Sequence record: OL631257.1 | DNA: 64,000 nt | Direction: 5' to 3' (one strand) | Source of the DNA: Escherichia phage ECCR664 | Shown here: positions 33,060-33,515 of the stretch, piece after piece | Layout of the letters: each line of letters opens with the position of its first letter | How positions within the stretch are numbered: position 1 is the stretch's first letter | Position numbers and translations under genes: made by a program | Notes under the pieces: model-generated | What the model saw: only the letters and a program-made list of their open reading frames with translations | Told to the model about the DNA's origin: nothing | Databases searched by the model: none

Positions 33060-33515
33060 TTATTTTAGATCTTCGGCCCAATCTAGTTTTAAGGGTTCTT
33101 TGTATTCACGGTCGAGAATAACCGGAATAGCTACATCACCACTGAATGATAGTTGGCCAACGTTATATGATAACGTTATATGTGGAGTGTAGTCGTCGAA
33201 ATCATGAGTAGCACCTAAAGCTCGTGCATACTGATGACGACATCTAAGATATTCGGAATCAAGAACTAAAACCAGTACAGCGCCGTCGTCAGTTTTCCAT
33301 ACCTCAAAGTGTCCTGATTCGGCAATAGAATAACTACCACTAGACGTAGTATATGGTATGTTTACACGTGAATAACAAATTGTTGAATGAAGCTTTTCAC
33401 GTGGTACTGGATTAGGAATTCTTAATTTACGCTGGAGGTCTTCCAGCGCATCAAGTGTTAATTCTGAAAACTTAGCTGCGACGTAGAGGCCTTGTGAAAA
33501 GTCCTCAAATTTCAT
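33060..33515 (-). CDS. acb1: 2H-phosphoesterase 57B (anti-CBASS protein Acb1 family in T4)
   Basis: 151 aa at the T4 57B position; two H-x-[ST] motifs ('HSTICYS' and 'HITLSY'). Confidence 0.8.

Follow-up and report, generated by a model that had tools for sequence, protein, structure and literature searches.

The open reading frame at 33060-33515 of the window (the whole stretch of 64,000 nucleotides that was analysed, from Escherichia phage ECCR664, OL631257.1) is, judging from its sequence, very probably the Mosigvirus orthologue of phage T4 gene 57B, encoding the anti-CBASS enzyme Acb1. The frame lies on the minus strand and runs from an ATG at 33515 to a TAA at 33060-33062 (151 codons; Table 1); the ORF listing contains no overlapping rival frame of 40 or more amino acids at this position. 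The window is a Mosigvirus (RB69-like Tevenvirinae) genome, whereas the T4 genome belongs to Tequatrovirus. Over the 1.9 kb around 57B, the window shares 99.4% identity with Escherichia phage vB_EcoM_EP32a, and this stretch is covered to at least 80% in each of 153 phage records.

Table 1. Features at and around the acb1 (57B) locus, in window coordinates.
Feature	Coordinates	Strand	Basis or sequence
ipI homologue (internal protein I, anti-restriction), downstream neighbour	32695..32982	-	Pfam IPI_T4, E 2.6e-49; PHROG 4363
acb1 / gene 57B CDS	33060..33515	-	ORF listing; 151 aa + TAA stop
C-terminal segment: E140 (T4 E141), W146 (T4 W147), lid LDWAEDLK	33063..33098	-	T4 alignment
Second catalytic motif H112-I113-T114 (T4 H113/T115), within HITLSY	33174..33182	-	CAT ATA ACG
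First catalytic motif H43-S44-T45 (T4 H44/T46), within HSTICYS	33381..33389	-	CAT TCA ACA
Gene 57A, tail-fibre chaperone, directly upstream of 57B	33515..33745	-	Pfam GP57, E 5.9e-23
Candidate T4-type late promoter, consensus TATAAATA, inside gene 1	34099..34106	-	pattern search; ~354 nt upstream of 57A start

The reference point for this assignment is T4 57B (NP_049750.1), which was identified as Acb1 by activity-guided fractionation and is the source of the activity that degrades cyclic nucleotides in infected cells (Hobbs et al., 2022; PMC9117128). T4 Acb1 cleaves the adenosine-containing signal molecules 3'3'-cGAMP and cUA as well as cAAA without a metal requirement, but not cGG or 3'2'-cGAMP, and the products of another nine acb1 genes, more distantly related, cleaved 3'3'-cGAMP and cAAA in every case (9/9; PMC9117128). 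Deletion of acb1 from T4 causes a defect of >300-fold on CBASS hosts and none otherwise (PMC9117128), and a transposon screen found T4 57B to be depleted, or conditionally needed, on a CBASS host (bioRxiv 10.1101/2025.11.20.689424).

The 57B protein of the window belongs to the same family. Its match to the Pfam Acb1 profile (PF23474) scores 196.8 bits, far above the cut-off of 27 (E 1.8e-58), with residues 8-149 spanning profile positions 1-144 of 144; the only other Pfam match falls below threshold (see below), and NCBIfam holds no model that matches the protein. BLASTP against T4 gp57B (from NC_000866) aligns 128 of 151 residues as identical (85%) with no gaps (E 2e-102). The best match to a solved structure is Acb1 of Erwinia phage FBB1 (7T26, apo; 7T27, complex with 3'3'-cGAMP), a phage whose host genus differs; the match covers 140 residues (9-148) at 64% identity with one single-residue gap (E 7.9e-59), and it is through this homology that the protein is assigned the 2H phosphoesterase fold. 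The fold assignment rests on the crystal structures because AlphaFold2, run on the single sequence, gave a model of unusable quality (pLDDT 38.6, pTM 0.29). The earlier note had read 57B as an Acb1-family 2H phosphoesterase and T4 57B as the prototype of Acb1, an enzyme degrading CBASS signals; the latter statement is borne out by Hobbs et al. (2022; PMC9117128), and for the former the alignment with T4 Acb1 that the note proposed as a check, with its 85% identity and aligned catalytic tetrad, agrees with Pfam, FBB1, the functional residues, synteny, and purifying selection.

The catalytic and ligand-contacting residues of Acb1 have been named in structural work (PMC9117128): the catalytic HxT/HxT tetrad is H44, T46, H113, and T115 in T4, where the H44A/H113A mutant is catalytically dead; the base-stacking aromatics are Y12, W74, F107, and W147; E141 contacts adenine N6; and a C-terminal lid (FBB1 residues 145-152) closes over the ligand. 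Residue numbers in the window protein are those of T4 minus one, the T4 protein beginning MMEF... and that of the window, one residue shorter, MKF.... All nine of the named catalytic and ligand-contacting residues are kept in the window protein (H43, T45, H112, T114, Y11, W73, F106, W146, and E140), and its lid has the same length as that of T4 (LDWAEDLK vs. LDWADDLK, 7/8 identical). Thus the tetrad, the stacking aromatics, the glutamate equivalent to E141, and the lid are all shared with T4 gp57B. FBB1 Acb1 has in common with the window both HxT motifs and the glutamate and tryptophan of the C-terminal segment, but carries F where the window and T4 have W73 and W74, respectively. In an alignment of nine sequences reaching down to 29% identity (window, T4, FBB1, and Acinetobacter, Krischvirus, Aeromonas, Klebsiella, and two Vibrio phages), 17 columns are invariant, among them H43, T45, H112, T114, Y11, and E140; most of these sequences have an aromatic residue at the W73 and F106 positions and W at the W146 position.

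Two H-x-[ST] tripeptides by themselves are weak evidence for an Acb1, ~0.4 being expected by chance in 151 amino acids; two of the protein's five histidines stand in H-x-T contexts, and these motifs gain significance from the homology results, in which they coincide position by position with the catalytic tetrads of the T4 and FBB1 enzymes. HSTICYS and HITLSY, which the earlier note had picked out in the 151-aa protein, are both found as described, at H43-T45 and H112-T114, and its placement of the gene at the conserved 57B position likewise holds, with gp57A upstream and IPI downstream as in T4 (Table 1).

The gene is intact and under constraint. Window and T4 57B differ by 23 substitutions, none of them on the nine named functional residues; among them are L42, beside H43, where T4 has I, and the lid residue E148, where T4 has D. 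The Nei-Gojobori estimates for this pair are dN 0.130 and dS ~1.97 (a saturated value), and the resulting dN/dS of 0.066 indicates strong purifying selection. Across deposited phages, the 456 bases of 57B are 100% identical in four (S143_2, UGJNEcP1, UGJNEcP2, and EP32a), 152 phage records carry the gene at a nucleotide identity of at least 95%, and a protein search gives an equal number. Mosigvirus Acb1 copies in GenBank, such as those of EP32a, S143_2, UGJNEcP1/2, Mizar, and AlbertHofmann/Bas47, show 99.3-100% identity to the window in nucleotide or protein sequence.

Two further readings of the protein itself have to be weighed against Acb1. One takes 57B for a LigT-like 2'-5' RNA ligase or an RNA-repair 2H enzyme that acts on RNA ends. 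PHROG 755 (phrog_755), which takes in the protein at E 5.2e-65, is labelled "RNA ligase", a product name that many RefSeq phage records bear, and Pfam returns a weak, partial match to 2_5_RNA_ligase2 (PF13563; E 0.012). The LigT and Acb1 families both belong to the 2H superfamily and share its signature of two H-x-T/S motifs, and the label appears to derive from this superfamily similarity; LigT and 2'-5' RNA ligase substrates are RNA ends, whereas those of Acb1 are cyclic oligonucleotide signals. The ligase match reaches only 16.1 bits, short of the cut-off of 27, and spans no more than residues 69-131, compared with 196.8 bits over the full length for Acb1; in infected cells, moreover, it is the T4 orthologue that was shown to degrade cyclic nucleotides (PMC9117128). 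We regard the RNA-end reading as extremely unlikely and reject the "RNA ligase" label because of its Pfam scores; the label is also at odds with the experiments on T4. The other reading accepts membership in the Acb1 family but supposes that the 23 substitutions have changed the substrate range or weakened the activity, so that the protein is not equivalent to that of T4 against CBASS. Some 15% of residues do differ from T4, including the two that lie beside H43 and in the lid, and natural loss-of-function acb1 alleles occur in T4-like phages, such as the nonsense mutation of Bas43 (PMC12657230; PMC13577387). This is nonetheless very unlikely: all nine named residues are kept, the changes are mostly conservative and the dN/dS is low, several independent isolates share the identical, unbroken frame, and the more distant acb1 genes noted above all retained cleavage of 3'3'-cGAMP and cAAA (PMC9117128).

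A third alternative concerns the sequence rather than the protein, namely that the intact 57B frame is an accident of error-prone assembly and that the true gene may be disrupted. Compared with EP32a, its closest relative, the window carries ~70 single-base deletions between 12840 and 64000, nearly all in A/T runs that have four bases in the window and five in EP32a. Shortly upstream of 57B there are three such sites (~34005, ~34469, and ~34909); they divide gene 1 into two frames (33750-33989, 33995-34390) and gene 3 into two others (34535-34879, 34891-35124). Since the extra bases at these sites are present in every close relative, and since genes 1 and 3 are essential in T4, the likeliest cause of the splits is under-calling of homopolymers, not a biological difference. 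Many other window genes are probably split likewise; the under-calling looks systematic and should be borne in mind wherever else the window seems to hold a frameshift or pseudogene. Homopolymer errors break open reading frames, however, and do not create them; the 456 bases of 57B match the four deposited genomes without an indel, and against EP32a there are zero differences. An artefactual 57B is therefore barely conceivable.

The surroundings of 57B correspond to those in T4. The order ipI-57B-57A-1-3-2 is the T4 order, gene 1 encoding dNMP kinase, and the order 3-1-57A-57B recurs in five of six loci of distant homologues (Acinetobacter, Krischvirus, Aeromonas, Vibrio phi-ST2, and Klebsiella KP27); the sixth, in Vibrio phage phiKT1024, places the 57B homologue in a different context. 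As in the window, T4 57B sits between 57A and ipI and overlaps the 57A stop codon; in the window the TAA stop of 57A and the ATG of 57B share one base (TAATG), while the T4 overlap is four bases. This overlap suggests that 57A and 57B are co-transcribed and translationally coupled. As in T4, acb1 and ipI together make up a small anti-defence cluster; the adjacency of the two genes in T4 has been discussed (PMC9117128).

Transcription of the pair probably comes, in part at least, from a late promoter inside gene 1. The octamer TATAAATA is a likely candidate, judged by its sequence and position: T4 has the identical octamer 356 nt upstream of its own 57A, and the pattern search that located it gave 16 matches in the whole window against 8.0 expected. 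A late promoter upstream of 57A fits the appearance of cGAMP-degrading Acb1 activity in T4 at ~15 min into infection (PMC9117128). Generic sigma-70 and terminator scans of 32600-35300 were no richer than shuffled sequence (10 promoters vs. 8.2; 4 terminators vs. 1.5, judged no enrichment) and thus lend no independent support to a dedicated 57B promoter or terminator.

The gap between 57B and ipI has features of its own. An early-promoter-like TTTACA-17-TACTAT with TG upstream lies at 33017-33045 on the minus strand, and a 12-bp hairpin at ~33011-33037 on the same strand shares bases with both the spacer and the -10 hexamer of this element; the 80-nt intergenic sequence folds with a dG of -18.3 kcal/mol (z -3.75). 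The T4 gap contains the same hexamers and, by eye, a hairpin in the corresponding position whose stem differs in sequence; this would point to a structure conserved between T4 and the window. Downstream of ipI, four small frames of 68, 126, 96, and 119 aa (31424-32645, minus strand) stand where T4 has trna.2-trna.4, in the interval from ipI to the tRNA genes. Pfam gives no match for any of the four; the 68-aa product is hydrophobic and membrane-like in appearance, and the group could plausibly be an extension of the anti-defence or accessory cluster.

By analogy with the T4 and FBB1 experiments, we infer for the window's Acb1 the following chemistry, substrate range, timing, and anti-CBASS phenotype. 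A small, metal-independent 2H phosphoesterase would take up cyclic di- and trinucleotides that contain adenosine into a U-shaped pocket and strain the adenosine, with the bases stacked on Y11, W73, F106, and W146 and adenine N6 read by E140. Acid-base catalysis by the H43/T45/H112/T114 tetrad would then cleave 3' of adenosine: the 2'-OH would attack the 3'-5' bond to give a 2',3'-cyclic phosphate and subsequently a linear product with a 3'-phosphate. Removal of the signal would leave the CBASS effectors inactive and allow the phage cycle to be completed.

Acb1 activity can also be a liability, as it can trigger Panoptes guards, which monitor decoy cyclic nucleotides and which T4-like phages escape through inactivation of acb1 (PMC12657230; PMC13577387; PMC12657218). 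The window phage is accordingly predicted to be exposed to Panoptes-type guards that sense the loss of a decoy cyclic nucleotide (PMC12657230; PMC13577387), a prediction useful for phage-therapy host range that involves no new biology. If the Mosigvirus allele had a shifted substrate range, for instance on the Panoptes decoys 2'3'-c-di-AMP or cA3, the trade-off between CBASS evasion and Panoptes triggering would change; such a shift is most improbable, and the sequence contains no hint of it.

The acb1 of the window is already known and offers no novelty as a gene. The copy in phage Mizar (99.6%) is annotated "anti-CBASS Acb1-like protein" and that in 348Ecol098PP "cyclic phosphodiesterase", and the protein of AlbertHofmann (Bas47; a Mosigvirus of the BASEL collection) is 99.3% identical to that of the window; PMC12657230 names the Acb1 of phage MM02 and classes Bas46-47 as "MM02-like". 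Most GenBank records of near-identical Mosigvirus copies nevertheless read "hypothetical protein" or "RNA ligase", where the proper name is acb1 (anti-CBASS 2H phosphodiesterase). The literature search returned no biochemical or genetic study of the window allele, nor of any Mosigvirus Acb1 by itself, and RB69, Mosigvirus, JS09, and HX01 are not mentioned in the text or supplements of Hobbs et al. (2022) that were searched. Of the PCR primers for acb1 of Bas35 (PMC13577387), one matches gene 1 of the window with two mismatches and the other has no match in the window, which fits the placement of Bas35 in a different genus-level group.

Elsewhere in the window, ARAGORN calls a 94-nt "tRNA-Stop" with anticodon tta at 30409-30502 (minus strand), which Rfam does not report at its gathering score; the call overlaps a stretch rich in indels relative to EP32a (30368-30470) and has ordinary tRNAs nearby (Arg-tct, 31033-31109; Met-cat, 31116-31189). 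Four segments (18023-18414, 20024-20477, 28460-28749, and 29581-30338) have no megablast match in the corresponding EP32a region, and the frame at 31788-32078 contains a cluster of small insertions relative to EP32a at 32005-32026 (~19 nt in total); these are variable or inserted segments of the genome.
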